From the IMG/VR virus record IMGVR_UViG_3300029305_003884, positions 1 to 64,000 of that record: 64,000 nucleotides of DNA. The stretch is one strand, 5' to 3'. The position numbers and the translations under genes are program-made. The first letter of the stretch is position 1. The number at the start of each line of letters is the position of its first letter. Source of the stretch: a virus. Its lineage: Duplodnaviria > Caudoviricetes. The notes beneath the pieces were generated by a model. The model ran no database searches. It saw nothing but the letters and a program-made list of their open reading frames with translations, and had not been told where the DNA came from. Below, piece after piece: positions 14,646 to 62,935 of this stretch.

Positions 14646-15446
14646 TTAGTTCGACAAGTCAGTCATCATGAACGGTCTTGCCGCCTCGTTCTTGATTTCT
14701 TCGAGCTTCTTGTCGTTGATTTCCTTCCAAGTAGTGTAAATCGTCTGTCCGTTCACCGTTCCGCCACCTGGGAGAGTGACCGTATCCTTCATAAGGATGA
14801 TACCAAGCTGCATGCCTGCACGGGACACAACGAAGTCCCTGAACAGCGGGTTGGCGAACACTTCGGCCTGCTTGGCCTTCAAGTACACCCTTGCAATGGC
14901 GTTCCTGTCCGTCTTCGGTGTCGGGTAGACACGCATACGGTGTTCGACTGGGTGCAACTTAACGCTGTACTGGGTACCGACGAGTTTCTTAACATCTTGC
15001 AGATACCTGAGGGCGCCTGCATAGGTGATAAGGTCGAACTGTCCCAGACCACCGAGGCCAGCACCGCCCACACCCATAAGGGATTCACCTGGGCCAACGT
15101 CCCATGCCATCATCGGGCTGAACGTGTTGCCGTAGCTCGGGTTCAAGTCCACCAGCTGGTACACATTGTCTGGAACCCTGTATTCCATGATACCCTGTTT
15201 CAGACGGATAATCATGTAATCGCTGTAAGTCGCCTCGGACTGCATGTAGCGGTAGAAGTAGTCGAGAGAGTCCTGGATAGCCATGGCGATGTGGCCAAGG
15301 CCGTTCCTGTTCTCGACTTCCATCTCGATTTCCGTTGCAGGATAACCGAGCCTAGCCTTGATGTACTCCGTCATGTCGTCACGGGTCATCCACATGGTTG
15401 GCAGCGGGTCTGGCGGCAAGCTGAAAATTTCAGGATTCCTACGCAT
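14646..15446 (-). CDS. Neck protein (T4 gp13-like)
   Basis: YIKARLGYP..EIE, AIQDSLDYF, LPGGGTVNGQTIY. Confidence 0.85.
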   Translation of the reverse strand: MRRNPEIFSLPPDPLPTMWMTRDDMTEYIKARLGYPATEIEMEVENRNGLGHIAMAIQDSLDYFYRYMQSEATYSDYMIIRLKQGIMEYRVPDNVYQLVDLNPSYGNTFSPMMAWDVGPGESLMGVGGAGLGGLGQFDLITYAGALRYLQDVKKLVGTQYSVKLHPVEHRMRVYPTPKTDRNAIARVYLKAKQAEVFANPLFRDFVVSRAGMQLGIILMKDTVTLPGGGTVNGQTIYTTWKEINDKKLEEIKNEAARPFMMTDLSN

Positions 15447-15970
15447 TATGCTATATTCCTCATCGGGAGTCTGGAATACATTTCCTGGTCACCCGTTGTC
15501 AAAGTGATGTTGAACAATGGTTTTCCCGTATGTGCGGACGTAACCTCGATTCGGTCTTTGATACCGCCTTCACTCGAATGACGGATACCGATATTGAAAT
15601 CCTTTGTCGAGTTGAGTTGCTCGGCATTGATTCCGAACTCGGGAGTGTAGTACATTTCCAGGTTGGCGAGGATAAACTCCTTCAACGCCTGCTTGGAGTC
15701 GAATCGCTGTATCCTTCCGTTTACCAGCTCGTTGTGGAGCCAGTAAGTGTACCTGTTTACGAGATGCGGGGTACGGGCGTATATCTTTTCGATTCCCCTG
15801 AACGTGAAGAACTGCTGCGGGTACACCGAAGTGTAGTAGATGAAGTTCGCCTCAGGATGTTTGAAACATTCTTCGAACAAGGCGGACACGACGGCTGATT
15901 GGGCCTCGGTCAGTCCAAGCTTGTCGATGCTGTCATAGAACAATGCCGCTTTGTCAAGAATATCTGTCAT
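15446..15970 (-). CDS. Leader-family virion protein
   Basis: N-terminus LFYDSIDKLGLTEAQSAVVSALFEECF. Confidence 0.65.
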   Translation of the reverse strand: MTDILDKAALFYDSIDKLGLTEAQSAVVSALFEECFKHPEANFIYYTSVYPQQFFTFRGIEKIYARTPHLVNRYTYWLHNELVNGRIQRFDSKQALKEFILANLEMYYTPEFGINAEQLNSTKDFNIGIRHSSEGGIKDRIEVTSAHTGKPLFNITLTTGDQEMYSRLPMRNIA

Positions 15971-15975
15971 ATTGG

Positions 15976-16683
15976 TTACTCGTTCTTGTTTTCGAAGAAA
16001 CGGATGAGGTGATACTTGATTGCAGTCAACTCGTCAATGAAACTGTCGAGCGTTCCGTTAAGTCCGAATGTCTCGAAGTGTTCGAGCTGAGAACGGAACT
16101 CGGAAATCTTGTCGAGGTCTTCGTCGACGGATGCGACGAAGGCGTTCCTGTCGGTCAGGTTCGGAATCTTTCCAGACCATACCTTGAAATCGATGTCCTC
16201 GTTGAACGTAGCCTGCAACGTCTCGGCAACCTTGTCCTTGGTCGACTGGTAGAGCTCGTAGCAATCCTGTGCCTTCTCGTGGAGAGCCTTGCTTTCAGCG
16301 TTCCAGTGATATTGCTGGTAGGCGCTCTGCTTGGCATTCATGAGGGTAAGGATATTGTACATGATAGCCTTGGAACCTTCGTCAGCATTCGGCTCGTCTT
16401 CCGCCTCGGACGGGGTTTCCTCGGGTGTGAAATCCTCAGGAAGGTTATCCTCGGGGCCATCATCAAGGTTTTCCTCAGGGGGCACATCGGGCTCCGCCTC
16501 GGGGGCTTCAAGTTCCTCTTCCTTTGGTTCTTCCTTATCGTCTTCCTTGTCGTCGTCAGCGTCATCGGAGTCCTTTTCTGCTGCCTCATAAATGACGTTG
16601 TGGATGGCAGTCACCGCTTCAATCGTAGTCGGGTCAATGCCTGCTTCCTGCATTGATTCCACAAAAATCTTGTACGGATTCAT
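15976..16683 (-). CDS. Leader-family protein with acidic linker and ferritin/Dps-like domain
   Basis: QQYHWN...ALHE..D..Y....DKVAE four-helix-bundle motif; late promoter upstream. Confidence 0.7.
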   Translation of the reverse strand: MNPYKIFVESMQEAGIDPTTIEAVTAIHNVIYEAAEKDSDDADDDKEDDKEEPKEEELEAPEAEPDVPPEENLDDGPEDNLPEDFTPEETPSEAEDEPNADEGSKAIMYNILTLMNAKQSAYQQYHWNAESKALHEKAQDCYELYQSTKDKVAETLQATFNEDIDFKVWSGKIPNLTDRNAFVASVDEDLDKISEFRSQLEHFETFGLNGTLDSFIDELTAIKYHLIRFFENKNE

Positions 16684-16709
16684 ATTACTCCTCAGTAATG
16701 AACTAACAA

Positions 16710-16718
16710 TAGTTTATA
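16710..16718 (-). promoter_or_regulatory. Putative late promoter TATAAACTA
   Basis: Exact motif about 27 nt before the ATG at 16683. Confidence 0.8.
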
Positions 16719-16730
16719 CCTCGGAGCCAT

Positions 16731-16760
16731 AAAAAGAAAGCCTACGGGCTTATCCGTAGG
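16731..16760 (-). terminator. Intrinsic terminator
   Basis: CCTACGGA-TAAG-CCCGTAGG then CTTTCTTTTT. Confidence 0.6.
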
Positions 16761-16965
16761 TCACTTCGTTGCTTTTATTCACTCTTCGACGGGATTTCAT
16801 CTTGTCGATGACATAATTACTCAACTCGATGAACTCTGGGAAGAACATGCGGTCGCATTCCAGGGCTGAGGTGGAAGTTTCCGCAGTCACGTATATCTTA
16901 CGTTTCCGCAGACTTTCTAATTTGTATCGAGGAAATGAATGTAGAATACCGAAAGGGGAACGGGG
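16750..16965 (-). CDS. Overlapping +1-frame extension / gp51-like small ORF
   Basis: Open frame ...LESLRKRKIYVTAETSTSALECDRMFFPEFIELSNYVIDKM...; no ATG in the 5' part (GTG at 16890). Confidence 0.5.
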   Translation of the reverse strand, partial: PRSPFGILHSFPRYKLESLRKRKIYVTAETSTSALECDRMFFPEFIELSNYVIDKMKSRRRVNKSNEVTYG

Positions 16966-18256
16966 TCACCGTCACACCTCCGCAGTTCGGGCACGTATGG
17001 GCCACCATCGTCTTGGTCCTGAAAGAGCATTTCGAGAGTTCGGACAGGAACCTTGCCGCATCATCCTTGTTGAGGTTTCCGAGGAAATCGATGTTATCCT
17101 GCAAAGAGTTGCAGCCAGGAATATCCACCAAGAGAGCCATGTTAAGGAGGGCCATATACGGCTTGGTAGGGGTAAATCCCTTCCTTTTCCACTCGTCAAT
17201 CTGGTTCCTGTAATAGTAGTCGTGGAAACGCCTTCTGACATAAATTTCGACCGCAGGGACACCTCCGATGTGTTCGACTGGGTGGCATCCGTATTCCCTG
17301 AACTTCTCCGCCAACTCCATCGGGTCAACATTGGTTTGGAACCTCATGTTGGTGAAATCTATCTTATAGCCTGGGTCGTCAACGACGGTTCCGCAATGCT
17401 TGCAGGTAAAAGTGGTCCATGTGTAAGGGTCTTTCGGGAAAGTTGATGCACGGAGGTACTGCAGGGTGTATATCTCATCGCCAGTGACAATCTGTTGCGA
17501 GCCGCCTGGACAGCGTGTGCGTCTGTCGAGGATTTCGGTAATCGAATCCAGTTTGTTGTCGTTGTCCATGTTTTCGACCATAAGCATGTCGATAAGTCGC
17601 AACGGCTGTGCTAGCATGGGACCCTTGTAGAACACTCCTTTTGACGGGAGTTCGTCGAGCGGAAGAAAATCTTCCTCGTTTGGCTTTGTTGGCTCGTGTA
17701 CATCAACTATTGGAGTCTGGACGGGAACCGCTTCCTGCGGCTTTTGAGGAATGGCTGCCTGGGGAACGAACCCCTGCTGTGGTTCCTGTTGTGTGACTGG
17801 GGGAGGAACCCTGTTCGCAGCAGCCTGAGAATACTTGCGTGCAAGTTCTTCGCCAGAAACATGATGCACGTCATCAGGAGGAAGCTTGCCTTTCTCGTGA
17901 TAGAACATCGCATCGTACTGGTCGTCAGTTACATGAGGCTTGTTGGCATCCATCGGTTGGAAAGTCCTGTTCGGGTCGAACCATCTCGGTTCGGCATTTT
18001 GCGGATTCTCGGGTTCATCCCCAGTATCCTCAATCTTGACCGACTTTTTCACCCGTGGATTGCTTATCTTAACCGACTGCCGTTCGTTAACGATATGCCT
18101 CTTAGGCGGCTCCTGAAAAATCATGGAACTTTCTGGCATAGAACCCAGTTTCTTTCTCAGAGCGACCGCCTGTTTCAACAAGTTTTCAGATGAAGCCATA
18201 TCATCTCCCTGCATAGTAAGAGTAGACATACCGAGGACCTGTGTAATGCTGTCCAT
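16898..18256 (-). CDS. Baseplate hub / tail assembly chaperone (T4 gp26-like)
   Basis: LPSKGVFY, GDEIYTLQYLRAST, CKHCG and CPNCG zinc knuckles; long low-complexity N-terminus. Confidence 0.7.
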   Translation of the reverse strand: MDSITQVLGMSTLTMQGDDMASSENLLKQAVALRKKLGSMPESSMIFQEPPKRHIVNERQSVKISNPRVKKSVKIEDTGDEPENPQNAEPRWFDPNRTFQPMDANKPHVTDDQYDAMFYHEKGKLPPDDVHHVSGEELARKYSQAAANRVPPPVTQQEPQQGFVPQAAIPQKPQEAVPVQTPIVDVHEPTKPNEEDFLPLDELPSKGVFYKGPMLAQPLRLIDMLMVENMDNDNKLDSITEILDRRTRCPGGSQQIVTGDEIYTLQYLRASTFPKDPYTWTTFTCKHCGTVVDDPGYKIDFTNMRFQTNVDPMELAEKFREYGCHPVEHIGGVPAVEIYVRRRFHDYYYRNQIDEWKRKGFTPTKPYMALLNMALLVDIPGCNSLQDNIDFLGNLNKDDAARFLSELSKCSFRTKTMVAHTCPNCGGVTVTPFPFRYSTFISSIQIRKSAET

Positions 18257-18542
18257 TCTTCAGGTCGATGGATATATTTTCCTTACCTTTCGCTTCCTCA
18301 TTAAGTTTATCCGATACCATTTTTGCCAATTTTTCGCTCATCGGGTCGGGCAATTCCTTGCCTTCATACTTGTCAACGATAATCGGTTCAGAAATGGACA
18401 TGTCCCGCATGGCGTTGTAGTCATGCGTGTCATGTCCTTTTTCGTACCACTTCATGTCATACCTGATGACATTGTAGAGTGGCGGCTCTGCATTAGTTTT
18501 CGGCTTCGGCGTTTCCGCTGCTTGTTCCGTTGTCGGTTCCAT
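18201..18542 (-). CDS. Hypothetical protein
   Basis: Overlaps both neighbours; SD GGAG. Confidence 0.55.
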   Translation of the reverse strand: MEPTTEQAAETPKPKTNAEPPLYNVIRYDMKWYEKGHDTHDYNAMRDMSISEPIIVDKYEGKELPDPMSEKLAKMVSDKLNEEAKGKENISIDLKNGQHYTGPRYVYSYYAGR

Positions 18543-19830: not shown

Positions 19831-19868
19831 AGTATCCTTCTAACGTAAAAGGTTGTTATTTACGTTAG

Positions 19869-19883
19869 TAAAATACATTTTTT
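19869..19883 (-). promoter_or_regulatory. AAAAAATGTATTTTA upstream motif
   Basis: Identical 15-mer at 31532-31546; 2-mismatch copy at 48731-48745. Confidence 0.55.
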
Positions 19884-19886
19884 CAA

Positions 19887-22238: not shown

Positions 22239-22278
22239 AACAATCCTCAGAGGGGGAATAATACATGTATTCCTCCAA

Positions 22279-22307: not shown

Positions 22308-22321
22308 GTGGGGGTGTTAAA

Positions 22322-24469: not shown

Positions 24470-26170
24470 CTATGCGTCGGCGGGGAATCCTGCCCTCCTG
24501 TTAGACTCGGCGATTTCGTCCTCGGTCATTTGGGCACGGGTCAATCTACCCTGTTTCAAATTAACCTGCCTGCGCTCTTCGGCATGCTTGTGGGCGACGT
24601 TGTCCAAGTCTTCCATGATAATCTGATGCATGGTCTGTTTATCCGCATCGCTCATTCGATAGTACTTGCCGTTCCTGATATCGAGGATGTATCCAAGACG
24701 CATCAGGTGCTTGTGACGGTCATTTCCAGTATGGTAAAGTGATGAAAGTAACTCCTTTCCTACGGTACGCCAAGGACCTGCGTTCTTGTCAACGTCAGGA
24801 GCGTTGGTGATATCGTTTTGGGCGGCGTTCTGAGCAGGTACGTTCCGCCTGTTGGGAACCTGCTGCCTAGTCACATTAGAAACCTGTCCTTCGGCACCAG
24901 CATTGTAGGATGCGGCACCAGCACCCATCATCTCTTTTCCATAGCGGCCAACCTGAGATTCACCACGACGATGCGGGTCACGGGCCTTCTCTATGAACGG
25001 CTTCTGGTCTTCTTTAGTCATGAGGAACACAGGAGCAGGGAGATATTTCAGGTATTCATCCGACGGGTTTCTCAACATCCGTTCGAGCAGTGCTTTTCCC
25101 TCGGGTGTCAACGGATTGTAACTCAGGTCCAAGCCAGTCTTGTAAGAGAATGCCTTGGCAAATTTATTCATGTCCATGATTTCGGCATTCTTGGTAAATC
25201 CCATTGAGGCGTAGTATTTGTCCTTGTCGACCACGTCGCCGAATTCATTACGTCCTTGGGCTGCCAAATCCTCTACGCTCATGTTCTTTTCTGCGTATGC
25301 GGATGCTTCTTTCAGCTTCTTGCTGAACATCGGAAGGAACTGTTCCTTGTAATACTGTTCAGTATACTGCTTCAACATCTTGGCCTTTGCACCTTCCTCG
25401 TCGAAATACGGGAGGAAATCACTATTCTGTTCCCAGTATTCCTCAAATCCTTTCAGGTACTCTGCATAGGCTTCTTTGTCGATAACCTTGTTGCCGAACT
25501 CATTCATGCCGTTCATGTAATAGAAGAACTGCTTCGAATGGTTCAGTGCAGTTTTCGCATCGACAATCTCCAGGTTCTTTGTAAAACCGAACTTTTCGGC
25601 AAAGGCATCGTCATCCGTAGTGTGGACAGAGTCCTCTTTATTTACACTGGTCGTCTTGGCGACAGCATCTAGCTTATCCATCAGGCTACCGCCAGCTGTC
25701 ATCAGGATGTCGCTCGTACGGTCAGCAGCACTCATTGCATATTTGGCAAACGGATTCTTAGACATCTGCTCTTCCACAGCAGCTTTCGCTGTCTTGACAG
25801 CATCTTCCTCGTAAGCGATATCCTTTACTTCATTAGAGACTTTCGACGTTGATGTAGCAACATCATAAATGGCCAAGCCGACCATAACGACAGCTGCGGC
25901 CCATCCAATAAAGGGAATAGAGGCACCACCAGCAGCGGCGGCGATTTTAGCAATAAGACCGCAGACAGAAGACCGAAGGGCTGTTCCTATAAGGACGCTC
26001 GACAGAGACAAACCTACGACAGAGCCAACACTTTCGAACTGAGGCTTATACACAGTTTGATGCAACCTGATGATAGCATTGGCCGTATCCTGGTCAATAC
26101 CATCTATTGCTTTCAATGCGGCTTCCATCAAAGCGTAGTTATCATTTTTGGGGCAATACTTTGAGTACAT
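24470..26170 (-). CDS. Leader-family protein with hydrophobic hairpin (candidate ejected membrane protein)
   Basis: Leader-like LMEAALKAIDGIDQDTANAIIRLHQTVY..FES followed by two hydrophobic G/A-rich segments. Confidence 0.6.
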   Translation of the reverse strand: MYSKYCPKNDNYALMEAALKAIDGIDQDTANAIIRLHQTVYKPQFESVGSVVGLSLSSVLIGTALRSSVCGLIAKIAAAAGGASIPFIGWAAAVVMVGLAIYDVATSTSKVSNEVKDIAYEEDAVKTAKAAVEEQMSKNPFAKYAMSAADRTSDILMTAGGSLMDKLDAVAKTTSVNKEDSVHTTDDDAFAEKFGFTKNLEIVDAKTALNHSKQFFYYMNGMNEFGNKVIDKEAYAEYLKGFEEYWEQNSDFLPYFDEEGAKAKMLKQYTEQYYKEQFLPMFSKKLKEASAYAEKNMSVEDLAAQGRNEFGDVVDKDKYYASMGFTKNAEIMDMNKFAKAFSYKTGLDLSYNPLTPEGKALLERMLRNPSDEYLKYLPAPVFLMTKEDQKPFIEKARDPHRRGESQVGRYGKEMMGAGAASYNAGAEGQVSNVTRQQVPNRRNVPAQNAAQNDITNAPDVDKNAGPWRTVGKELLSSLYHTGNDRHKHLMRLGYILDIRNGKYYRMSDADKQTMHQIIMEDLDNVAHKHAEERRQVNLKQGRLTRAQMTEDEIAESNRRAGFPADA

Positions 26171-27320
26171 TTTTCAACAACTCCGGTTTCTTGACGAGCG
26201 TCTCAATAAATTCTTTTATGACCACGTTGGGTACACCAGCGTTACTCTTCTTGATGATTTCGGCAAGCACCTTGGTAACTGGCGTTCCCATCGACTGTAT
26301 GAGGGAAGCGGCATCACCAATTATACCAGCCTGGTTAGCCATGTCCGCCATAGCCGCATCCGACTCTGCCGTAGTGGCCGTTGCATCAGGAGCAAACTCA
26401 CGAGCCAAATCTGGCCAAGCCTTGTCACGGCTGTTCTTCGGAAGCAATGCATCTTCAACATCATCATACTCTGGGTCAGCAGGAGCAGGCGTTCCATGGC
26501 AGCGTTGTACAAATGACATAAATTGCTGTGTACCCTCATTATTTCGGCACCACGGGCCAGGACATGGTTTACCCGTGATATCATAATGACGTATAATCTG
26601 TGCGCCAGGGTATTTTTTCAACAACCAAGCGACAAGCTTTGCCGTATTGGCCAAAGTGGCATCACTCAGGTAATAGTTAGGGTCTAGTGCAGACGTAGTC
26701 GTTATGTCCTTTATCCCACCCTTATAGTTGCTGCACATCTCGATGGAAAGGGTGTTCTTGTAATTGGCCGTCCCGTAATACCGAGCAGCGTCATTCATTC
26801 CACGCTCTTTTGCCTCGGCTTTATACTTTTCAACCTCAGCTCTACCACCAGCGGCACCGACAGCGAACGTGTAGTAATGGTCCAAATCAGGATTGTATTG
26901 GTACACTTCACCATCGTCAACGATGAAGTCAGCAGACGCTTTTTTTCCTGGTGTAAATCGGGTTCTTGTTGCCTGTCCAGCCTTAGACGAACCACCAGCC
27001 GTGTAATGCAATGCTATGTATTCGACCTCTCGCTTGTCCGTGCGCTGCACGTTTGTCGGAATGCTGTTTCTCGTTATATTGAACGGAACCTGTTCCTTTT
27101 CACCGCCTTCAGACGAATTGTCTTGTTTTGATTCTTGCTTATCTTCCTTCTTTTCGTCCTTCGGTTCTTCTTTCTTATCTTCCTTTTTCTCAGGCGCTGC
27201 GGCTGGCTTGTATCCAGCCCCGTCCTCAAACAAGGTACGATAAAGGGAGATGACGGCATCTTTCTGCACCTCATTCAATCCCCTGTATCTGTTTACCGAC
27301 TCTATGAAGATATTTTTCAT
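26142..27320 (-). CDS. N-acetylmuramoyl-L-alanine amidase (Amidase_2) with family leader
   Basis: YIALHYTA, SADFIVD, SIEMC, IIRHYDITGKPCPG. Confidence 0.9.
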   Translation of the reverse strand: MKNIFIESVNRYRGLNEVQKDAVISLYRTLFEDGAGYKPAAAPEKKEDKKEEPKDEKKEDKQESKQDNSSEGGEKEQVPFNITRNSIPTNVQRTDKREVEYIALHYTAGGSSKAGQATRTRFTPGKKASADFIVDDGEVYQYNPDLDHYYTFAVGAAGGRAEVEKYKAEAKERGMNDAARYYGTANYKNTLSIEMCSNYKGGIKDITTTSALDPNYYLSDATLANTAKLVAWLLKKYPGAQIIRHYDITGKPCPGPWCRNNEGTQQFMSFVQRCHGTPAPADPEYDDVEDALLPKNSRDKAWPDLAREFAPDATATTAESDAAMADMANQAGIIGDAASLIQSMGTPVTKVLAEIIKKSNAGVPNVVIKEFIETLVKKPELLKNVLKVLPQK

Positions 27321-27345: not shown

Positions 27346-27414
27346 TAGTTTATAACGTAGAGGCGATAAAAACGCCATATCGGTAGCTCATTTGTTGTCC
27401 AATCTTATAAACTA
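27346..27414. promoter_or_regulatory. Back-to-back late promoters
   Basis: TAGTTTATA at 27346-27354 and TATAAACTA at 27406-27414. Confidence 0.8.
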
Positions 27415-47019: not shown

Positions 47020-47062
47020 TAGTTTATAATCTGGTACGAAAACCGCATCAAGGTATAAACTA
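47020..47062. promoter_or_regulatory. Back-to-back late promoters
   Basis: TAGTTTATA at 47020-47028 and TATAAACTA at 47054-47062. Confidence 0.8.
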
Positions 47063-47093: not shown

Positions 47094-47501
47094 ATGCAAT
47101 TTATCGATTTCATCAACACCTACGTCGAAGACGAAGATTTCAAGAAAACCGTAAACCGTCTGTACGAGGTGTGGAAGCAGAACGAACCTTCTCGTCTTGA
47201 ATCAGCTGTCACAATCCAACCGCAGCAGACGGTCTCGACGGCAAATACGCCCGAGCAGAACGCCGCAGCCCAGCAGCAACAGAAGAAAGTAGAGCCGAGA
47301 ACCATTCAGGGAGACCTGAACAACATGGATTCACAGAAGGCCATGTCTCTTGCCGCACGCTTCCAGGAAATCGAGAAGCAGAAGGAAGAGAACCAGAAGG
47401 CCGCAGAACAGGCCCAGGAAAAGATTGACAACGAACTTGACGAGCTCCAGAACAACTTCAACGCAGTTGTCAACGGAAAGACTGACAACATCGTAGGATA
47501 A
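47094..47501 (+). CDS. Leader-like, Q-rich coiled-coil late protein
   Basis: Start MQFIDF after the promoter; ...RLES then low-complexity sequence. Confidence 0.65.
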   Translation: MQFIDFINTYVEDEDFKKTVNRLYEVWKQNEPSRLESAVTIQPQQTVSTANTPEQNAAAQQQQKKVEPRTIQGDLNNMDSQKAMSLAARFQEIEKQKEENQKAAEQAQEKIDNELDELQNNFNAVVNGKTDNIVG

Positions 47502-47505: not shown

Positions 47506-48093
47506 ATGCTAGCAACGTTCAGCCAACAACTCAGATATCTCAGGAGAAACGAACCGTCCCTGTACGAATCCATCTCGAAGGCATACCGCAAATGCCTAAT
47601 GGAATCCAATTTGGCTCCCCAGATGAGTCAGACAGACGACGAGGCTGCAGAAACTCCCGTCGAAAAGACTGAAATCAAGCAGAACAGCACTAAGGGCGTT
47701 GATGACCTCATGTCCAAGGTTCATGCCATGGTTGGCGTAAACGAGACTAAGAAGGAAGGCGATGAGATATTCGACCTGAAAAAGGACGATGTCGAAACTG
47801 TCAAACCTGACCCACAGCAGCAGGCAGACCTGTTCGGTGAAGTTCCTGATGAAACACCCAACGATGAATTTGTTCCAGAGGTTCCTATGGAACCTGCAAA
47901 CACCGAGATGCCATCGGAGAATCCTCCTGCCGAAACCGCCAGCGACAATCTGGTTTCAGAGGAACCTCCTGCCGAAGGCGTAACCAATGAGCCAGTAGAA
48001 GATAATACTACCGAGGACTCATCTGTTGACGACATTGATGAATTCGACCTTGACCACCTATTCGGTCCAGATGACGAATCGTCTTCTACCTAA
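47506..48093 (+). CDS. Leader-like acidic late protein
   Basis: ...YESISKAYRKCLMES then a D/E/P-rich tail. Confidence 0.65.
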   Translation: MLATFSQQLRYLRRNEPSLYESISKAYRKCLMESNLAPQMSQTDDEAAETPVEKTEIKQNSTKGVDDLMSKVHAMVGVNETKKEGDEIFDLKKDDVETVKPDPQQQADLFGEVPDETPNDEFVPEVPMEPANTEMPSENPPAETASDNLVSEEPPAEGVTNEPVEDNTTEDSSVDDIDEFDLDHLFGPDDESSST

Positions 48094-54160: not shown

Positions 54161-54169
54161 TAGTTTATA
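54161..54169 (-). promoter_or_regulatory. Putative late promoter TATAAACTA
   Basis: About 29 nt before the ATG at 54132; abuts the IS left end. Confidence 0.8.
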
Positions 54170-55626
54170 ATGTTGCGGCGAGAAAACTCGCACATCTTTA
54201 GTGGGTGAGACGAAAAAAACGACTTGACAAAAATTAAAACATTTTGTAACTTATATAAACATATAGGTAGAACAATGGATTACTGGCATTCTCTATTGTC
54301 CTATCGGTTCAAGATTTTGTGGCCTGTTGGGAAATTGAATGCCAGTTTAGTTCCCAACGGGCCATTCTTGTATATGATAAGCAGGGCATACAAAATACGG
54401 TTGTATCCAACGGTAAAGCAGCAGAAGTTCTTTGCAAGAACTTTTGGTACATGCCGTTTCATCTACAACCGTGTGATTGCACTTAAATCCGCCTTGTACG
54501 AAGAAACCCGCATGTCGTTCACGCCAAAGCTTGCGTCATTCAAGGAAGAATGGCCTTGGATGCGGGAAGCCGACAGCCAAGGCATGGCTAACGTCTACAT
54601 GGATGCATTAAATGCATATCAGAAGTTCTTCGATGGTAAGTCTAAGTACCCGAAGTACAAGAAGAAATGCGATAAGCAATCATACCGAAATGCGATGATG
54701 CCTAAGACAATATCTAAGCTCATCCGTGGCACTAGAAATGACCGAATATTCATTCCGAAGGCGGGATTGGTGAAATTCCGTCAGGACTACGACTTCAAGT
54801 CGTTGCCAATCAAGAAGATATGCAGTTTAACCATATCCAAGTCGGCAACGGGGAAGTATTTCTGTTCGATAACCTGCGAAGTGGACGATACTTCGATGAA
54901 ACTGCCGCCGAATAAAAATGAAATCGGGTTTGACTTGGGAATCAAGGATTTCCTCATCGACTCCGATGGTTGCGTAATCGACAACCCGAAATATATGAAA
55001 CGGAGCGAAGTCAAGCTTGACAAGGCACAGCGCAGGCTGTCCCTGTGCAAGAAAGGTTCGAACAACTATCTGAAACAGAAGCATCGTGTCGCTCTGGTAC
55101 ACGAAAAAATAAGAAACCAGAGAATGGATTTCCTGCACAAGGTCAGCAAGATGCTAGTTGTAGAAAACCAATACATCTACTCCGAAGACCTGAAGCCGTC
55201 CAACATGTTGAAGAACCACCGCCTTGCAAAGGCTATCGCAGATGCGTCCTTCGGACGGTTCTGCAATATGGTTGCATACAAGGCCATGTGGTACGGTAGA
55301 TACTACTTCAAGGTAGGGTCATTCTACCCGTCAAGTAAGCTGTGCAATGTCTGTGGTTACAAGAACACCACACTGACGCTCGAAGACAGGGAATGGACCT
55401 GTCCTCACTGTGGTACATACCTTGACCGTGACCATAATGCCGCTATCAACATACTGAATGAAGGAAATCGTATACGTTTAAGTGGAGATACCGTACGGAC
55501 TGCGGAAGCCGATAAATCGACTATGCTCGTTGATACTGGTAAGATTACTTACCTTGAGCGAGAATCCTGTAACGCCACGGATGGACTCGGGGAAACCCAC
55601 CCATCTTTAGTGGGTGGGTAGTTCAT
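54169..55626 (+). mobile_element. IS200/IS605-family (IS1341-type, tnpB-only) element
   Basis: Related subterminal hairpins sharing CATCTTTAGTGGGTG at about 54188-54209 and 55595-55619; left flank TTTAT, right end TTCAT; no tnpA. Confidence 0.88.
54374..55621 (+). CDS. tnpB: TnpB RNA-guided endonuclease
   Basis: RAYKIRLYPT HTH, RuvC D (GFDLG), E (SEDL), D (DRDHNAAIN), CxxC zinc finger. Confidence 0.95.
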   Translation: MISRAYKIRLYPTVKQQKFFARTFGTCRFIYNRVIALKSALYEETRMSFTPKLASFKEEWPWMREADSQGMANVYMDALNAYQKFFDGKSKYPKYKKKCDKQSYRNAMMPKTISKLIRGTRNDRIFIPKAGLVKFRQDYDFKSLPIKKICSLTISKSATGKYFCSITCEVDDTSMKLPPNKNEIGFDLGIKDFLIDSDGCVIDNPKYMKRSEVKLDKAQRRLSLCKKGSNNYLKQKHRVALVHEKIRNQRMDFLHKVSKMLVVENQYIYSEDLKPSNMLKNHRLAKAIADASFGRFCNMVAYKAMWYGRYYFKVGSFYPSSKLCNVCGYKNTTLTLEDREWTCPHCGTYLDRDHNAAINILNEGNRIRLSGDTVRTAEADKSTMLVDTGKITYLERESCNATDGLGETHPSLVGG

Positions 55627-55646
55627 AATCATGCCAAAAAAGCATA
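55470..55646 (+). ncRNA. Predicted omegaRNA (reRNA) overlapping tnpB 3' end, with guide AATCATGCCAAAAAAGCATA
   Basis: Established TnpB architecture; right-end hairpin plus flank. The 5' boundary is approximate. Confidence 0.6.
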
Positions 55647-55654
55647 TTCGATAG

Positions 55655-56914
55655 TTAATGTTCCAACTCATTCAAGTCAACGACTTTCTTGGCATACTTT
55701 TCGGGAGGGTCCTTGTCGGGATTAGTCTTCACCCACAGTATCTTCCTAACCCTGTATCTTTTAGCCAGTTTGAGCTCGGGATAGAAATCCATGTCGCTAA
55801 CGATGATTATGCCGTTGTACCTAGTTTTGCAGGTGTCCAGCATACGGAAAACACAGTTGCAGTCCGTGCCGCCGCCCGTCGCAATGGAGAATTGCTTCTT
55901 CTTTCTCATCATCGGAGTCAGATGGACTGGTTTCGTACACTGGGTATTCCACCAGCAATAGTCGATATCCACGTCCTTTCCGACGGCCAAAATCAGGGAA
56001 ATTATTCTGGAAACGGCACTTGTCGGCATAGAACGGCTAACATCGCCAGCAACCAGTAGCCTAGACCTGTACTCTGCGACATGGCCTGGGTACGCAAGGT
56101 CGAACCTGCGGTTCCTCTTGAAACGGCATTCCCTCCACCCGCACTCGATTGATTGGGTGACGAACTTCCTGATTATGGTACGTCCATCGACAGCCTTTTC
56201 AGCCTTCGACAGCATGCTCATGACACCGTTTGCCGTCGCCGTGCCCCAGCTTCCACCGCCATTAACAGCGGCCTGTTCAACCGCCTCGGTAACGCTACCG
56301 TCAGCATTCCACTCATCGGCCCTAGTCTCGTCGTTCAAGTATGTTGACATGCCGCCAGACGGGTTCTTTTCGCTGGAATCATCCTGCTGTTCCCCATCGT
56401 TGTTCTTACCACCGTTCTTGCCCTCGGTGAGCAGCTTATAGAGGATTTCGATACTTGCGTTACGGTAGTCGTACTCCTTGTAGAACTTGCTGTAATACAG
56501 AGAGTTGATGTTGGTTTCCAGGCGGGAAACCTTCGCCAGAACCTTACCGTAGGCGGCATTATTTACACCGATGTCGGAAGAAAGGCCCATCCTGAGGGCA
56601 ATAAGGTCGGATGCCATGAGGGACATCTTCTTGTCGCTGTAAAGACGGGTAGATACATGGCCTAATCCGATTCGGACAGCCTCGATGTAGAAAATCAGTG
56701 CAAGTTCTTGCGGTTCAAGAGTGGCCACGAAGTCACTGTTCATCTTGACATAGAGCTTTCCATTCTCGATGCCGCTGGCCACGCTGGTTACATCGTCAAA
56801 TACAAACTCAGCAAACCCGAGAACGGTATGCGTAATCGGGGCGTACTTAAACAAGAGATACTTGGCGAGCCTTGTAACGTCTTCGGGTTTTCTGTTTGTG
56901 TTTGTGTCGCTCAT
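55655..56914 (-). CDS. VWA-like / DUF2201-type protein (MoxR partner)
   Basis: MIDAS-like DVSRSM, GGGTD, IIVSD; N-terminal metallopeptidase-like domain. Confidence 0.8.
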   Translation of the reverse strand: MSDTNTNRKPEDVTRLAKYLLFKYAPITHTVLGFAEFVFDDVTSVASGIENGKLYVKMNSDFVATLEPQELALIFYIEAVRIGLGHVSTRLYSDKKMSLMASDLIALRMGLSSDIGVNNAAYGKVLAKVSRLETNINSLYYSKFYKEYDYRNASIEILYKLLTEGKNGGKNNDGEQQDDSSEKNPSGGMSTYLNDETRADEWNADGSVTEAVEQAAVNGGGSWGTATANGVMSMLSKAEKAVDGRTIIRKFVTQSIECGWRECRFKRNRRFDLAYPGHVAEYRSRLLVAGDVSRSMPTSAVSRIISLILAVGKDVDIDYCWWNTQCTKPVHLTPMMRKKKQFSIATGGGTDCNCVFRMLDTCKTRYNGIIIVSDMDFYPELKLAKRYRVRKILWVKTNPDKDPPEKYAKKVVDLNELEH

Positions 56915-57179
56915 ACTTTTCTTTTTCCTGGGTCTTCATAAAAATATATTGTTTTGAGCTTAGTCTGGAAAAATAATAAGTAGTGCAGATTCCCATGCGT
57001 AGCATGAGAAGGTGACAAATGTGATGTTCTTTGAGTTTGAGCTCCACTTGGTTGCTCTTTTTGTTGCTACCGCCACAGGATAGGGGCATTATGTGGTGAT
57101 TTTCGCATAGTTCCCCTATTACATATTCTCTTTTTTGTGCCTTCCTTATTATACTGAAATAGATGGCAGAATAATTCAA
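56847..57179 (-). CDS. HNH endonuclease (short)
   Basis: MNY..IY..II, ENHHIMPLSCGGSN..SN.V.L...EH..CH. Confidence 0.85.
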   Translation of the reverse strand: MNYSAIYFSIIRKAQKREYVIGELCENHHIMPLSCGGSNKKSNQVELKLKEHHICHLLMLRMGICTTYYFSRLSSKQYIFMKTQEKEKYERHKHKQKTRRRYKARQVSLV

Positions 57180-57182
57180 GCA

Positions 57183-58331
57183 TTACCTCTTGAGATAAGT
57201 AATATCGTTCGAATCGAAATGAGTCGGCATACCGATGCTTTTCAGATAATCAAGTACCTTGAATATCTTGGTAGGATAACTCAGAGCTTCCTTCATCGAA
57301 GCCCTTATATTAACCGCATCGTTGGCGGTAATTTCACCACGGTCCACCATTCGATATAACATCGGCACACTAAGCTCCTTATCATTCTGGAACGGGCTCG
57401 GAGTAGTGCCTATGCCTCCATTATAGCAAGCAAACACGAACGTCATATCTCCAAGATGGTCGTCATCCTTTTCATTGGCGTTAACCTTGTTGCTGCGTTC
57501 GGTATCATACATGAGATACAGAAGATAGCCAGCGGCAAGGTTTATCGCATCTTCGACAACCTCTGGATTCCTCATCTTGCTGGCACTCAGGCCAAACTCG
57601 CCTGCATGCAACCTCGCATCCCGTATCGCATCTGAACCAAGCTGGGCAAGACCACGATATCTAGTCGTCTGCGGTTTATCGTTGAACATACTCTCAATAC
57701 AGATGAGGGCAAGCAGTTCAGCCTCTCCGATTCCACGAGAAGATGTAATCTGGGCCGTATTATGAACAGCACGCAATATGCGTTCTATGTGGGCCGCCTG
57801 CTGTTCTGGTGTATGTTTCACCTTGTATGCCTCGGCTAGGTTAGTTGAAATAAACTTCCTTACTGCATTGTCACTTGGTTCAGAAGCAGATGACTCAGGG
57901 AAAGACACGGACATCGCATCCCTGACTAGACTTCTGTCGTTCGTATCCTTTTTCACTGTAGGAACGGTGTCAAACTTTGCTGGACTGTCCTTATACTCGA
58001 AAGTGGTGTCCTTTTCGTCGAAAGTCCTCTCGGGGAGCTCGGCATACTGTTCGAGCTGTTTGTCATCAAGACCCAACTTTTGAGCCATATCGTGCCAGTC
58101 AGTATTGTAAATACTGGCGCCTGGGCTGCCTCCAATCAGGGCGGCACCACCTACCTTGATGGCCTTGCTAATCTTAGGGTAATACGTTTCCAGGTTGGAC
58201 AACCTGTTATAGAGCCCTTTCCAGTCCACCCCTTCATAGATGGCTGAATGCAGGTCGAAAATCGCTTCCATCTGCACTTTCGGTAAGTCAAGTTGCCTTA
58301 TTGCCTGTCGGAACTGCTCTTCGTTGGTCAT
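57183..58331 (-). CDS. Lytic transglycosylase (SLT) with family leader
   Basis: ALICIES, GLAQL, AAGYL, ACYNGG; start MTNEEQF after a late promoter. Confidence 0.85.
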   Translation of the reverse strand: MTNEEQFRQAIRQLDLPKVQMEAIFDLHSAIYEGVDWKGLYNRLSNLETYYPKISKAIKVGGAALIGGSPGASIYNTDWHDMAQKLGLDDKQLEQYAELPERTFDEKDTTFEYKDSPAKFDTVPTVKKDTNDRSLVRDAMSVSFPESSASEPSDNAVRKFISTNLAEAYKVKHTPEQQAAHIERILRAVHNTAQITSSRGIGEAELLALICIESMFNDKPQTTRYRGLAQLGSDAIRDARLHAGEFGLSASKMRNPEVVEDAINLAAGYLLYLMYDTERSNKVNANEKDDDHLGDMTFVFACYNGGIGTTPSPFQNDKELSVPMLYRMVDRGEITANDAVNIRASMKEALSYPTKIFKVLDYLKSIGMPTHFDSNDITYLKR

Positions 58332-58355
58332 GAAAAATCCATTAGTATCCACCAA

Positions 58356-58404
58356 TAGTTTATAAAGTCCAGCTTCACCGTCCACCCCCCAACATTATAA
58401 ACTA
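58356..58404. promoter_or_regulatory. Back-to-back late promoters
   Basis: TAGTTTATA at 58356-58364 and TATAAACTA at 58396-58404. Confidence 0.8.
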
Positions 58405-58426
58405 TTCGATGATTAGGTGATGCTGT

Positions 58427-60028
58427 ATGAGACCATTTTATTACGTTCGCACAATTGAGAAAATCCTTATTGGACTTATCGACATGTTCAATAACATGTA
58501 TGTCAACAAGTACGATGACATGAATCGTGTTGACTACTCAAGGAGCGCTAAAATACCCATCATCACCCACAACAATGCCAACTTTACGAACTTCTGGTCA
58601 TCGACCCAGTACAAGCAGCTGACGGTTCCGTACCCGATAGGTGCTATCAGGTTCGTAAGCAACGCCCCAGACGCAAGCAATAGGCCGCAACCGACCTATG
58701 CGAGAGAGATTTTCAGCAGGTCGGCAGACCGATGGATTCGTGACATACAACCGACTCCATATACATTCAACTTTGAATTGCAGTTCCAGGCGGACAACAT
58801 ATCCGACATCTTCCAGATAAAGGAGAACATCGAGCCGTACTTCAACGAGTACAGGACTATCGTAATCAAGGAATGGGACTTCGCCCCAGAAATTCCTAGG
58901 CCAGTCGTTGTGGTTATCAACAGCAATACAACCGAGTTGAATGAAGAGGTTAGCGACTCCGATGCACAACAGCAGGTATACAAGGTGACTTACCCGATTA
59001 CCTGCTACGGTGTATATCACAGGCCGTACGAAACACCAGAGATGATTAAGTACGCCGAGATGAACTTCCATATCGACGAAGACCTCATCCACAGGGAACA
59101 GCTCCTCGTCTACCCGAGCGAAATCATACAGCAGAAGAAAAAGCTCTGGGAAACGGTGTGCCCGACAATCAGGGAAGGCTACTCAATTCTGCACACCCTA
59201 TCGACTACTCTTATGCAGAAGCAGGATGCGGACGGCAGCAAGTATTACGAGGATGTCTCGCTAAAACAGTTGCTACTGTTCGACCGTTTCACGACAACGA
59301 CTTACCACGAAGGTTTGAAACTCTGCGGTGTGGACGCATACAACGACCCTGATACAGACTACAAGATTCTTCCAGAAGATTTTGATGCCAATGGTATTCC
59401 CATTTACACATACTGCGAATCGGTAACGGACGACATAACGAGACCTGCAGAAGTCCCGTCGTTCGACCTGCTCCGCTTCAACTTCGACTACGACACTCCT
59501 CACGAAAGCGACCTTAGCGGTTTCGGTCGTGACTTCGTCGCAGTCAACGACGATACGAGAAAGTTCATTCCGAACATCGCCCCTGGAAACGGCCAGGAGG
59601 TGGAAGGCGGCTACGCCGTGGAGGACTACGTCGATTGGAGCAAGATTCTCAACTGGTTCGGCGACAATGCCAATGGCGACATCGAGTCGTCATACACATT
59701 CAAGGCAACCATCCAGTTTGTCGAAGACGCCCCAGGCGATACAATCTTCCAGTACCTCAGCAATGACGAAACCACTCTGTCTGACGGAACGGTCATACCA
59801 GAGGGCGAAGTCTGGTTCGACTGGGGCATGATGAACGGTCGTCTATACTTCACTTACCATACGTCCAGCAAGTACAAGACATTCGTATCTGACGTTATCC
59901 ACCCGAACAAGGAAACCATCTATTCCTTCTATTTCGCCCTGTATGACAAGGGAGACAAGGGTATGTTCGGAGTCAAGACCAATTTTAGTGAAACAATGAT
60001 AGCCCTCAATACGGTTGAGGCTAATTAG
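58427..60028 (+). CDS. Tail sheath stabiliser/terminator (T4 gp15-like) with C-terminal extension
   Basis: FYY.RTIEK...F.N, PTPYTFNFEL, QI.ENI.PYF. Confidence 0.8.
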   Translation: MRPFYYVRTIEKILIGLIDMFNNMYVNKYDDMNRVDYSRSAKIPIITHNNANFTNFWSSTQYKQLTVPYPIGAIRFVSNAPDASNRPQPTYAREIFSRSADRWIRDIQPTPYTFNFELQFQADNISDIFQIKENIEPYFNEYRTIVIKEWDFAPEIPRPVVVVINSNTTELNEEVSDSDAQQQVYKVTYPITCYGVYHRPYETPEMIKYAEMNFHIDEDLIHREQLLVYPSEIIQQKKKLWETVCPTIREGYSILHTLSTTLMQKQDADGSKYYEDVSLKQLLLFDRFTTTTYHEGLKLCGVDAYNDPDTDYKILPEDFDANGIPIYTYCESVTDDITRPAEVPSFDLLRFNFDYDTPHESDLSGFGRDFVAVNDDTRKFIPNIAPGNGQEVEGGYAVEDYVDWSKILNWFGDNANGDIESSYTFKATIQFVEDAPGDTIFQYLSNDETTLSDGTVIPEGEVWFDWGMMNGRLYFTYHTSSKYKTFVSDVIHPNKETIYSFYFALYDKGDKGMFGVKTNFSETMIALNTVEAN

Positions 60029-60039
60029 GAGAACTTATC

Positions 60040-60414
60040 ATGAATCTCTTTGAATCGCAAATCAACAACCTGAACCTCGACCCGTCGATGAAGAAAAGCA
60101 TCATCGAATTGCGAAAGGTGTGCCTGGAAAGCGATGTCGGTGGAATGCCGAATCTCGACTTCGAAAAGCAACAAGCAGAAGCTGCAAAAAATCGGGCCGC
60201 TTTCAATGCCATCAAGGACACGATAAATTTGGCAATGAAAGAAGTTGGGGAAAATCTTCCGAGTAACGTAGAAGGAGAAGCCCTCGGTCAGGCCGTATTG
60301 AAGAGGATACAGGATAAGTACTGTCCGCAGTTTGACAAAACGTATGGTGAGGGGTGGGGTAAAAAGCTTGACATGGAAGCCAAGAAACGGCTCCATAAAT
60401 TAGCCCTACTGTAA
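60040..60414 (+). CDS. Leader-family small protein
   Basis: MNLFESQINNLNLDPSMKKSIIELRKVCLES. Confidence 0.75.
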   Translation: MNLFESQINNLNLDPSMKKSIIELRKVCLESDVGGMPNLDFEKQQAEAAKNRAAFNAIKDTINLAMKEVGENLPSNVEGEALGQAVLKRIQDKYCPQFDKTYGEGWGKKLDMEAKKRLHKLALL

Positions 60415-60421
60415 AGAACGG

Positions 60422-60430
60422 TATAAACTA
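60422..60430 (+). promoter_or_regulatory. Putative late promoter TATAAACTA
   Basis: About 28 nt before the ATG at 60458. Confidence 0.8.
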
Positions 60431-60457
60431 GGTTTAGAATACAATTAGGGTATCTAT

Positions 60458-62086
60458 ATGCTGAAATCTCTTTTTGAAGCGTCAATCGACAGGCTTAATA
60501 TCCCCGTGGATATGAAGACTGCAATCAAGAAAATTAACAACGTCTGTCTTGAAGCGGAAGGCGACAATAAGCCAGACCCGAACGAGCAATGGAAATTCAA
60601 CGCATTCCCCGAAAATAAGGGTAACGCAGCTCCGAATGCCGCTCCGGCCAATAACGCACCGAAGAAAACTCAGGCAGATTTGAACAAGCAATGGAATTTT
60701 ATCGGATTGCCCGAACAACCGTCTAACCAGAAAGACTTTGTTCCAGAAGGAAAACAGGGATGTGTAGACCCAGCAAAACCGTTCAAGAACCTGACTGCGG
60801 AAGAAGCAAAGAACTTGTACACGGTCAACCAAGACAATTCGGCTCAGGCAGCTCCTGCACAGACGGCACAGGCTCAGCCAGCACAGGCTCAGCAACAGGC
60901 CCAGGCCAATGCAAAACCTGCCGCTCCTAAGTACAGGAGGGGTGCCGATGTAGCAACCGTGCAGTTCTTCATCAGGTCAAAACACCCTGAGACGGAACTT
61001 GTCGGAGACGGTATCCTCGGTCCCAAGACAATCCAGGCAATCCAGAAAGTCGAAGACCTGGAGGAAACTGGAAAGATGGACCAGGCGACTCAACAGGCGT
61101 TCAACGATATGCTTAAAGAAGCAAAGGTTAAGGTCAAGGAATTGCAGGAAAAACTTGGTGTGACGGCAGATGGTCTCATCGGTAAGCAGACTCTTGCCGC
61201 AATGAACAAGGCCAACATGAACGTAGCAAACCTGTTTAGCACGCAACCTTCCAATGAGGCTTATGCATCCAAGCAAACCACCCCAGCAACCACTGCGGAA
61301 AACCCAACCGACAAGAAGCTGACATCACACCCTTTTAACAAAGAAAGAGCTGATTCCTTGCTTCAACAAAAATCAATCACACAGCAAGCATACAATATCT
61401 GGAAAAACTTCGGCATAGCCCCTATCATGCAGAAAAAGATGCCGAACGAAACCAAGGCATTTATTGCAAGAGCCCAACAGGAAAAGAAAAACGAAGCCAA
61501 CGCCGCTACCACGACAAAGGGTGAAAAAACTCCTGGTAACCAGGCGTCGAACGGAAATGTTACTCCCCAAAACGACGAAGAAAAGAAGTTCTATGAGGGG
61601 ATGAAAAAGAACTATCTGAAGGTATACCAGGCCTCAGCAAAGCAGAAGGGCAAGAGCGAACTATGGGCCAGCAACATGGCCGATAATGCGGCTAAAGAAG
61701 CCCTTGCCAAGAAGAGGAATGGCACCTGGGGAAAGGCAGCCGAGCAGGGAAATCAGCAGGCCGCTACACCACAAAAAAAAAATAACCAGAACGACGAAGT
61801 CTATCACACGATGAAAGATTCAAAAGGAACAACTGAATACTACTCTGGGAACATTTCCTGGAACAATCTGAGTCCTGAAGAAAAGAAAATCAAAGAGGAC
61901 GCCGAAGCCAAGGAGCAAGCCAAATACTATGATGGAAAACAAGTTAAAAAGAACCCAAAGACAGGCAAACCATACGATGAACAAATAGTGTATAACAGGA
62001 TTCAATCAGCAGGCCAAAACGCTGTTATAAAGAACAGAATGGCGAAAGCTCGTGAAAGACAAGCAGCTGGTGGAAAACAAGGATAA
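60458..62086 (+). CDS. Leader-family protein with peptidoglycan-binding (PG_binding_1) repeats
   Basis: GADVATVQ...DGILGPKT..AI and VKELQEKLGVTADGLIGKQT. Confidence 0.8.
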   Translation: MLKSLFEASIDRLNIPVDMKTAIKKINNVCLEAEGDNKPDPNEQWKFNAFPENKGNAAPNAAPANNAPKKTQADLNKQWNFIGLPEQPSNQKDFVPEGKQGCVDPAKPFKNLTAEEAKNLYTVNQDNSAQAAPAQTAQAQPAQAQQQAQANAKPAAPKYRRGADVATVQFFIRSKHPETELVGDGILGPKTIQAIQKVEDLEETGKMDQATQQAFNDMLKEAKVKVKELQEKLGVTADGLIGKQTLAAMNKANMNVANLFSTQPSNEAYASKQTTPATTAENPTDKKLTSHPFNKERADSLLQQKSITQQAYNIWKNFGIAPIMQKKMPNETKAFIARAQQEKKNEANAATTTKGEKTPGNQASNGNVTPQNDEEKKFYEGMKKNYLKVYQASAKQKGKSELWASNMADNAAKEALAKKRNGTWGKAAEQGNQQAATPQKKNNQNDEVYHTMKDSKGTTEYYSGNISWNNLSPEEKKIKEDAEAKEQAKYYDGKQVKKNPKTGKPYDEQIVYNRIQSAGQNAVIKNRMAKARERQAAGGKQG

Positions 62087-62109
62087 ATAACCGAACATAT
62101 CTTAGTATT

Positions 62110-62141
62110 CACCCACGGTTCCGACCGTGGGTGTTTCGTTT
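62110..62141 (+). terminator. Intrinsic terminator
   Basis: CACCCACGGT-TCCG-ACCGTGGGTG then TTTCGTTT. Confidence 0.8.
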
Positions 62142-62157
62142 AAGGTGTCATCTAGGC

Positions 62158-62166
62158 TATAAACTA
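62158..62166 (+). promoter_or_regulatory. Putative late promoter TATAAACTA
   Basis: About 32 nt before the ATG at 62198. Confidence 0.8.
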
Positions 62167-62197
62167 TAGTCAGATTCAGGATTAAGCTGACCTACAT

Positions 62198-62935
62198 ATG
62201 ACATTGTTCGAGTCTGAAATACGCAAGTTGAATATCCCTAGATGTATCATGGACAGCATCGTGTCCCTGCGGAATATCTGCATGGAAGCTGAACAGCCGC
62301 AGCCACAACAGGCAACCCAACCTGCTCAAAAGCAACCACAGCCACAGCAACAGCAGCCGAAACCGCAACAGAATGCGGCACCCCAGCAACAGCCAGCTCC
62401 TCAGGCACAGCCTCAACAGAATGCACCGCAGACCGCTCAGCAGCCAGCCGCTGGAAATCAGCAAGGCCAGACTCAGCCGCCAGCTCAGGAGAATGGTCAG
62501 CCACAGCAGACAGCCCAGCCTCAACAGGCAAACAACGCACAGGGCAAGCAGCAGATTCCAGAAAACATAGACGAGAACCAAGTTGACAGCAACAAGTTGC
62601 TGAAGCAGTTCAATAATTTTTTGGAGGGTTGCCGAAAGAGAGTTGAAGAGCGCTTGATAGCTGACTTCGGTGATAAAGGAAAGACTATCATAGAAACAGT
62701 AAAGGAGTACACGAAGACGGGTTCCCCGATAGACTTCGATATGGAGATACTTCCGTTGCTCACTAAAAACGGGGAAGCTCCGACGAAGAAAGTTATTAAC
62801 GAGGTGCGTGATAGGCTCCAAAAGTATTTCGGCTTGAAAATCAGCGAGCCCAAGCAAAAGCAGCAGCAAAAAAACGAAAATAAGCAAGAACAGCCCGCAA
62901 AGACGGACGAAAAGCAAGAAGCTCCTCAGAAATAA
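62198..62935 (+). CDS. Leader-family protein with Q/P-rich linker
   Basis: MTLFESEIRKLNIPRCIMDSIVSLRNICMEAE then a QP-rich tract. Confidence 0.75.
   Translation: MTLFESEIRKLNIPRCIMDSIVSLRNICMEAEQPQPQQATQPAQKQPQPQQQQPKPQQNAAPQQQPAPQAQPQQNAPQTAQQPAAGNQQGQTQPPAQENGQPQQTAQPQQANNAQGKQQIPENIDENQVDSNKLLKQFNNFLEGCRKRVEERLIADFGDKGKTIIETVKEYTKTGSPIDFDMEILPLLTKNGEAPTKKVINEVRDRLQKYFGLKISEPKQKQQQKNENKQEQPAKTDEKQEAPQK

Follow-up and report, generated by a model that had tools for sequence, protein, structure and literature searches.

Why would a phage place the same short segment at the start of late proteins that are otherwise unrelated? The question is raised by a 64-kb stretch of viral DNA (hereafter the window), the first 64 kb of a 178,042-bp IMG/VR virus record (G000; CheckV completeness 42%). 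A first-pass annotation, made from the sequence alone, had described a leader of about 30 amino acids, here called the tag, on about 10 unrelated late proteins of the window, and had proposed that it is a portable packaging signal that loads diverse effectors into the phage head, is removed at its terminal Glu and allows ejection into the host. Judged by its genes, the source virus is an uncultured giant T4-like phage of the T4 superfamily. Its large terminase is 36% identical to cyanophage gp17, and T4-type genes for a tail sheath, a gp15-like protein and a clamp loader were detected. The record also encodes a gp20-type portal, a gp23-type capsid protein (PF07068, 217 bits) and, at record positions 148768–149502, a gp21-type Peptidase_S77 prohead protease (PF03420, 51 bits, above cut-off). 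No near match to the window DNA was found among 50,697 cultured-phage records. Close relatives were retrieved through the prohead protease and included two complete genomes of 419,423 and 422,150 bp, both with terminal repeats. The computations described below show the tag to be real, restricted to N-termini and modular. It is probably a capsid-targeting propeptide, non-homologous to the capsid-targeting sequence (CTS) of T4, three times as long and with clade-specific dialects.

All eight N-termini that had been reported as strong were present at the coordinates claimed. A 30-position profile made from them was searched against the 2955 six-frame open reading frames (ORFs) of the 178-kb record. 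The seeds scored at E 1e-11 to 1e-14, and non-seed matches were found at 71842 and 147737 (E about 1e-6), 161078 (E 2e-3) and 132227 (E 0.12), all of them N-terminal; in total the same profile placed five or six further members outside the window. Matches in the record started at residues 2–15 from the best start codon. Reversed sequences gave nothing better than E 0.45, so that chance similarity was not upheld. When the first 60 residues of all ORFs were compared all-against-all with no prior model, the tag family was the sole cluster of more than two.

Leaving each seed out of the profile recovered five of the N-termini at E ≤ 0.003 and a sixth at 0.054. Three of these belong to genes on the plus strand, encoding a helical protein of 124 amino acids (60040–60414; tag codons 60043–60132; E 1e-7), a 542-amino-acid protein with a peptidoglycan-binding domain (60458–62086; tag codons 60467–60556; E 4e-6) and a 245-amino-acid protein with a Q/P-rich linker (62198–62935; tag codons 62201–62290; E 6e-5). 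The other three, on the minus strand, encode a 235-amino-acid protein with a polyacidic tail after the tag and a net charge of −39 (15976–16683; tag codons 16582–16671; E 7e-4), an SLT-domain lytic transglycosylase of 382 amino acids (57183–58331; tag codons 58230–58319; E 0.003) and an N-acetylmuramoyl-L-alanine amidase of 392 amino acids, in which a K/E-rich linker follows the tag and Amidase_2 spans residues 96–256 (26142–27320; tag codons 27222–27314; E 0.054). The two remaining N-termini were tested by a profile made without themselves and without their orthologues. One, on an orphan protein of 174 amino acids without a Pfam family, encoded by the second gene of the operon starting at 16683 (15446–15970, minus strand; tag codons 15857–15946), was found at E 2.5e-5. 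The other, on a 566-amino-acid protein (24470–26170, minus strand), gave E 17, and its orthologue in the relative G003 gave 0.023; its divergent tag ends F-E|S and two hydrophobic segments lie behind it (residues 47–65 and 79–97). Seven of the eight strong N-termini are upheld in this way; the 566-amino-acid protein is not independently significant and is assigned as a weak member on sequence.

Two weaker matches that had also been listed fared differently. An acidic protein of 195 amino acids (47506–48093, plus strand), whose divergent tag ends L-M-E|S, was missed by the window-type profile and recovered at E 0.004 by the profile of a second dialect described below. A late protein of 135 amino acids (47094–47501, plus strand) has R-L-E|S followed by a Q-rich linker and was matched by neither profile; it is treated as a non-member. 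A 274-amino-acid ORF at 2871–3695 (minus strand) has a weakly tag-like N-terminus (E 0.05–0.7) without the terminal Glu motif, and may be a degenerate member. Taken as a whole, the initial observation stands in that the family is real and larger than claimed, and falls in respect of some of the listed members and of one cargo assignment, which is taken up below.

A profile of the tag alignment matched 21 proteins in each of the two complete relatives and 14 in a 277-kb relative with a protease 72% identical; the matches included non-seed members. The figure of about 10 was therefore too low, with 12–15 members in the record and about 21 per complete relative. Searching a library of 1.84 billion representative proteins at E ≤ 0.001 yielded 47 matches, of which about 41 were N-terminal, that is, single, full-length and beginning at residues 2–7 or at mis-called starts; each of the remainder showed several partial stretches and resembled repeats. 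The sole clean full-length match away from an N-terminus, at residues 78–104 of a 250-amino-acid metagenome protein (P0021), may stem from fusion to an ORF upstream or from an incorrectly called start. Tagged proteins range in length from 59 to 1377 residues.

The window-type profile gave no match in two further relatives, G004 and G005, whose proteases are 57–59% identical. The tag system was at first supposed to be absent from G004, a supposition overturned by a G004-specific profile that revealed a divergent dialect. About 14 N-termini of this genome form a separate set, comparable in length and ending F/L/M-E and then G, A or S; the reversed control gave none. Aligned with hhalign, the two profiles match over their whole length and place the Glu in the same column (probability 94.6%), at a score of 28 compared with 6.8 ± 1.4 for column shuffles. 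The evidence here is weaker than elsewhere because the G004 seeds were partly picked by eye, although three of them emerged from unbiased clustering and the profile also recovered members outside the seed set. On the strength of these profiles the tag exists as clade-specific dialects.

The helix-turn-helix that had been proposed for the tag was predicted in both of two AlphaFold models with different cargo, as a helix at residues 3–9/12, a turn and a second helix at residues 15/18–31/33. In the model of the 124-amino-acid protein a low-confidence, disordered linker lies behind the tag. No fold match at E ≤ 0.001 was found for this model in BFVD, or in PDB for a model of the tagged 243-amino-acid protein introduced below. 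The tag is charged and amphipathic, and its hydrophobic face is conserved. In a test for Sec/Tat signal peptides or signal-anchors, no 19-residue stretch with a mean hydropathy of at least 1.6 was found inside any tag; segments reaching this value were found only at residues 47–97 of one cargo.

A sequence logo of the tag end, based on 86 distinct tags, has A/V/I at P4, C in 70% and otherwise mostly I/V/L at P3, L/F/Y/M at P2, Glu in 84% at P1 and A/S/G in 72% at P1′, followed by acidic or Gly-rich residues. This agrees with the earlier description of a tag that ends at a conserved Glu before a small residue. A comparable site is found in the capsid protein. When the latter was aligned with T4 gp23, L-P-E|S fell on the T4 maturation site L-T-E|A, which is cut after residue 65 (Glu65), and a second, upstream hydrophobic-x-E site is common to both proteins.

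For a link between the tag and the head protease, the comparative evidence is strongest in the tagged 243-amino-acid protein, which is encoded just upstream of the S77 protease gene (record positions 147737–148468, plus strand). This protein carries an invariant, SWIM-like and zinc-finger-like C-x-C...C-x-H arrangement, belongs to no Pfam family and has 73 metagenome homologues. Across 45 homologues of 30–97% identity, Glu33 is one of 14 invariant columns, together with the zinc-finger Cys/His residues. Near homologues carry the 30-residue tag and distant ones an unrelated 15-residue peptide, which ends L-L-E, M-L-E or L-T-E at the same column as Glu33. The G003 orthologue, in spite of a 5-residue insertion, still reads L-T-E|A. 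Such constancy of the junction, despite exchange of the preceding segment, would be expected of a processing site. The 15-residue peptide in the form that ends L-L-E is conserved on the G004 orthologue (76111–77097, minus strand) and on the distant homologues P0211–P0237. A look at gene context, in which a distant homologue was not encoded beside a protease, was uninformative.

Tagged genes immediately precede the protease gene and also occupy the interval from portal to capsid gene, the positions of the T4 core genes 67 and 68. In the complete relative G001, a tagged polyacidic gene directly follows the portal gene, as gene 67 does in T4. No gp22-type scaffold was found in the record by PF25623; a helical protein of 316 amino acids encoded after the protease is a candidate scaffold by position only.

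To what kinds of protein is the tag attached? After the tags had been cut off, the 54 tagged proteins of four genomes fell into 28 cargo families without mutual similarity (blastp, E 1e-4). Recognisable cargoes are Amidase_2, SLT, two peptidoglycan-binding proteins and a NUDIX hydrolase. Others are the membrane-hairpin protein, a 1377-amino-acid protein and the 243-amino-acid protein, and the rest are orphans, often with polyacidic or Q/P-rich linkers. Among the cargo assignments made initially, the amidase, SLT and peptidoglycan-binding domains were borne out by Pfam (Amidase_2, SLT, PG_binding) and the hydrophobic hairpin was located at residues 47–97 of the protein starting at 26170; the ferritin-like cargo was not, as it matched no Pfam family. 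The 1377-amino-acid protein had no match in cultured phages and the 243-amino-acid protein a single marginal one there. G001 contains a second Amidase_2 gene (295461–295913, plus strand), with no tag detected, directly after a tagged gene of 176 amino acids, and the product of this second gene could be the true endolysin. No member of the Phage_lysozyme family was found in this genome.

The claim that the tag is portable and borne by unrelated proteins is upheld by these 28 families and by two comparisons between relatives. The NUDIX orthologue in G004 is without the whole extension of about 44 residues. Between portal and capsid genes, the record (85.8–86.7 kb) and G001 (198.3–199.3 kb) carry unrelated tagged genes, that of G001 being polyacidic, between flanks that are 77–93% identical. 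From this comparison the site is a hypervariable cargo slot, and it recalls the polymorphic internal-protein loci of T-even phages. The slot gene of the record (85970–86572, plus strand) has an in-frame TGA at tag position 11, which is Gly in the same-slot gene of G001 and in most tags. The TGA could be a nonsense mutation, an assembly error or a site of read-through, and a TTG just past it could restart translation with a truncated tag.

Paralogous tags share 28% residue identity, and identical residues use the same codon in only 41% of cases. It follows that the tag has long been conserved and that selection sees the protein rather than a DNA cassette or an RNA. Among orthologues of the 124-amino-acid protein the tag is nearly invariant while the cargo is 38–54% identical, and the alignment collapses right after the Glu. 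By these computations the tag is under stronger constraint than the cargo.

The tagged genes share a late-promoter-like box, TATAAACTA, which occurs 15 times in the window compared with 0.32 expected. It lies 33–40 nt upstream of the ATG in 9 of 13 tagged genes (as TATAAACCA at one), and those without a box of their own are second genes of operons, in keeping with the earlier statement that the tagged genes sit in box-driven units. By sequence match, the box of the operon starting at 16683 is at 16710–16718 (minus strand), and equivalent boxes are at 27346–27354 and 58356–58364 (minus strand) and at 47054–47062, 60422–60430 and 62158–62166 (plus strand). A further copy at 54161–54169 adjoins a pair of genes situated among the late genes, for a TnpB/IS605-type transposase (54224–55621, plus strand; phrog_506, E 1e-120) and, beside it, an HNH endonuclease (55655–56914, minus strand).

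Is there a known system to which the tag can be compared? The T4 internal proteins enter the core by means of propeptides of 10–19 residues that are released by gp21 (PMC9026906), and the same route may serve T4-like phages generally for the loading of varied proteins (PMC9026906, PMC3012670). Several features of this type of system were also found here at the level of sequence: an N-terminal, portable signal on otherwise unrelated proteins (in T4 the CTS of IPI, IPII and IPIII and the propeptides of Alt, gp67 and gp68), a hydrophobic-x-Glu end, a gp21-type S77 protease, a gp23-type capsid protein with the same cut site, and cargo sets that vary between related phages. The differences are in scale and content. 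The tag has about 30 residues and two predicted helices, compared with 10–19 residues in T4; it occurs on about 21 proteins per genome rather than on a handful; and its predicted cargoes include cell-wall enzymes, a NUDIX enzyme, a membrane hairpin and a 1377-amino-acid protein.

Homology to T4 core proteins was sought and rejected. The 235-amino-acid protein resembles T4 gp67 (PF17634) in layout, with N-terminal helices, hydrophobic-x-Glu, a small residue and a polyacidic tail; the Pfam GP67 score was 19.8 bits (cut-off 27). This match and a gapless alignment to gp67 made by eye seemed promising at first and were not upheld by hhalign: with the tag set against nine gp67 N-termini without their acidic tail, the probability was 0.5% and 28% of column shuffles reached the score. 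The resemblance is confined to the architecture. Nothing was found for the scaffold gp22 or other core proteins. The tag system is most likely an enlarged version of the T4 load-then-clip signal, without detected homology to those T4 core proteins that were compared.

Other phages offer partial parallels. In P1, an N-terminal signal of about 30 residues sends the large protein DarB into a myovirus head for delivery to the host, and the first 30 residues are reported as enough to load a reporter (PMC9024508). As far as that account goes, DarB differs in being one protein of a phage that is not T4-like, with no homologous tag family, and no conserved Glu cut site is mentioned at the end of its signal (PMC9024508). 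In phiKZ, 201phi2-1 and SPN3US many head proteins lose N-terminal propeptides after Glu; the enzyme that cuts them, gp175/gp245, is described as a diverged relative of gp21, and a targeting role of the propeptides has been proposed (PMC10052503, PMC9026906). The motif reported for this group is A/S/G-x-E, the propeptides are mostly of 111–254 residues with few short ones, and a shared tag on unrelated cargo is not part of the descriptions given in these sources (PMC10052503, PMC9026906). The comparison with phiKZ that had been drawn in the first-pass annotation holds as an analogy and does not extend to the motif, which is T4-like here, with a hydrophobic P3. The literature search found no paper describing the shared 30-residue tag. 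Encapsulin cargo-loading peptides work on a comparable principle, in that diverse cargo is brought into an HK97-fold shell by a short conserved peptide at one terminus. They differ in being usually C-terminal and uncleaved and in binding the shell protein directly, and no evolutionary link is known.

As a capsid-targeting propeptide, the two-helix tag would attach late proteins, once synthesized, to the scaffolding core of the prohead during assembly. The gp21-type S77 protease would then remove it by a cut directly behind the conserved Glu that closes helix 2; the mature cargo would stay inside the head, and some or all of it would exit together with the DNA at infection. The portability of the tag, its predicted fold, its Glu end, the protease and the capsid site support the packaging signal that had been proposed, and from them we infer loading into the capsid. 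Several points weigh on the other side. Most of the mature cargoes are acidic, whereas the T4 internal proteins are basic; the amidase, SLT, peptidoglycan-binding and membrane-hairpin cargoes act on the cell envelope and suit a role in lysis equally. The tag has no significant similarity to T4 gp67, gp68, gp22, gp21, Alt, gp24 or Inh, the proteins compared; the 10-residue peptide of the IP proteins would be too short for meaningful statistics. About 16% of tags have no Glu at P1.

How else could the tag be explained? It might dock proteins onto some other late assembly, such as a lysis or envelope-attack complex at the membrane, the tail or the baseplate, the Glu being structural or cut by another protease. 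Four or five of the cargoes are peptidoglycan enzymes or binders and one is a membrane hairpin, all are products of late genes behind TATAAACTA, and the head is a destination that we infer. Against this stand many cargoes unconnected with the envelope, and proteins such as a NUDIX enzyme, a zinc-finger-like protein encoded next to the protease gene, a 1377-amino-acid protein and polyacidic proteins; the untagged Amidase_2 of G001 could supply the endolysin, the end motif matches the predicted capsid cut site, and tagged genes occupy T4 core-gene positions. We therefore consider another assembly unlikely, though it is the strongest of the alternatives. Somewhat less probable still is a removable pro-segment that silences harmful enzymes or aids folding, is cut by the prohead protease or another, and carries no address. 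A conserved Glu junction before a disordered linker, and several lytic enzymes among the cargoes, speak for this. It is improbable, nevertheless, that one two-helix module inhibits or folds cargoes of 28 unrelated kinds, among which small helical or disordered proteins are frequent, and the higher conservation of the tag relative to its cargo suggests an external partner that the tagged proteins share.

We give about the same low credence to a permanent N-terminal domain that serves oligomerisation or recruits a chaperone, is never cleaved and has nothing to do with packaging. It would account for a folded two-helix unit with a conserved hydrophobic face and for the 16% of tags without Glu, but not readily for a junction Glu that is invariant where an unrelated 15-residue peptide replaces the N-terminus, for L-T-E|A kept past the insertion in G003, or for a small P1′ residue in 72% of tags. 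That the similarity is due to chance, to low complexity or to a DNA cassette or RNA element that was copied recently and lies at the 5′ ends of late genes is hardly credible. The segments are indeed short and all lie behind the same promoter box; yet the reversed controls were empty, unbiased clustering of N-termini recovered the family, and non-seed matches appeared in the record, in the relatives and in the library. A DNA cassette or RNA element in particular is ruled out by the codon analysis, which indicates old divergence under selection at the protein level.

A more far-reaching form of the propeptide reading can be put forward only tentatively. The tag would fold by itself and act as a docking domain recognized by a dedicated receptor within the core of the prohead, the two having diversified together into the 30-residue type found here, the G004 type and, further out, the 15-residue peptides. 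It would serve a swappable arsenal of at least 20 proteins, part of which would be ejected to breach the envelope (amidase, SLT, peptidoglycan-binding proteins and membrane hairpin), by analogy with the internal core proteins of the podovirus T7. If true, head cargo of a contractile-tailed phage would have gained a new role in breaching the envelope.

Should the tag prove to be a capsid-targeting propeptide, a single profile would list the whole set of head-packed proteins of an uncultured giant phage clade. That set is likely to be the first wave of effectors to meet the host, and the many orphan proteins within it would gain a place of action. The T4 principle of tagging, loading and clipping would be seen to extend from three to five proteins with a 10-residue peptide to more than 20 with a folded module of 30 residues. 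Differences in dialect between sister clades make co-evolution of tag and receptor testable. Predicted to fold alone and ending in a known cut site, the tag is also a candidate tool for introducing foreign proteins into large capsids, a use already made of the T4 CTS and P1 DarB.

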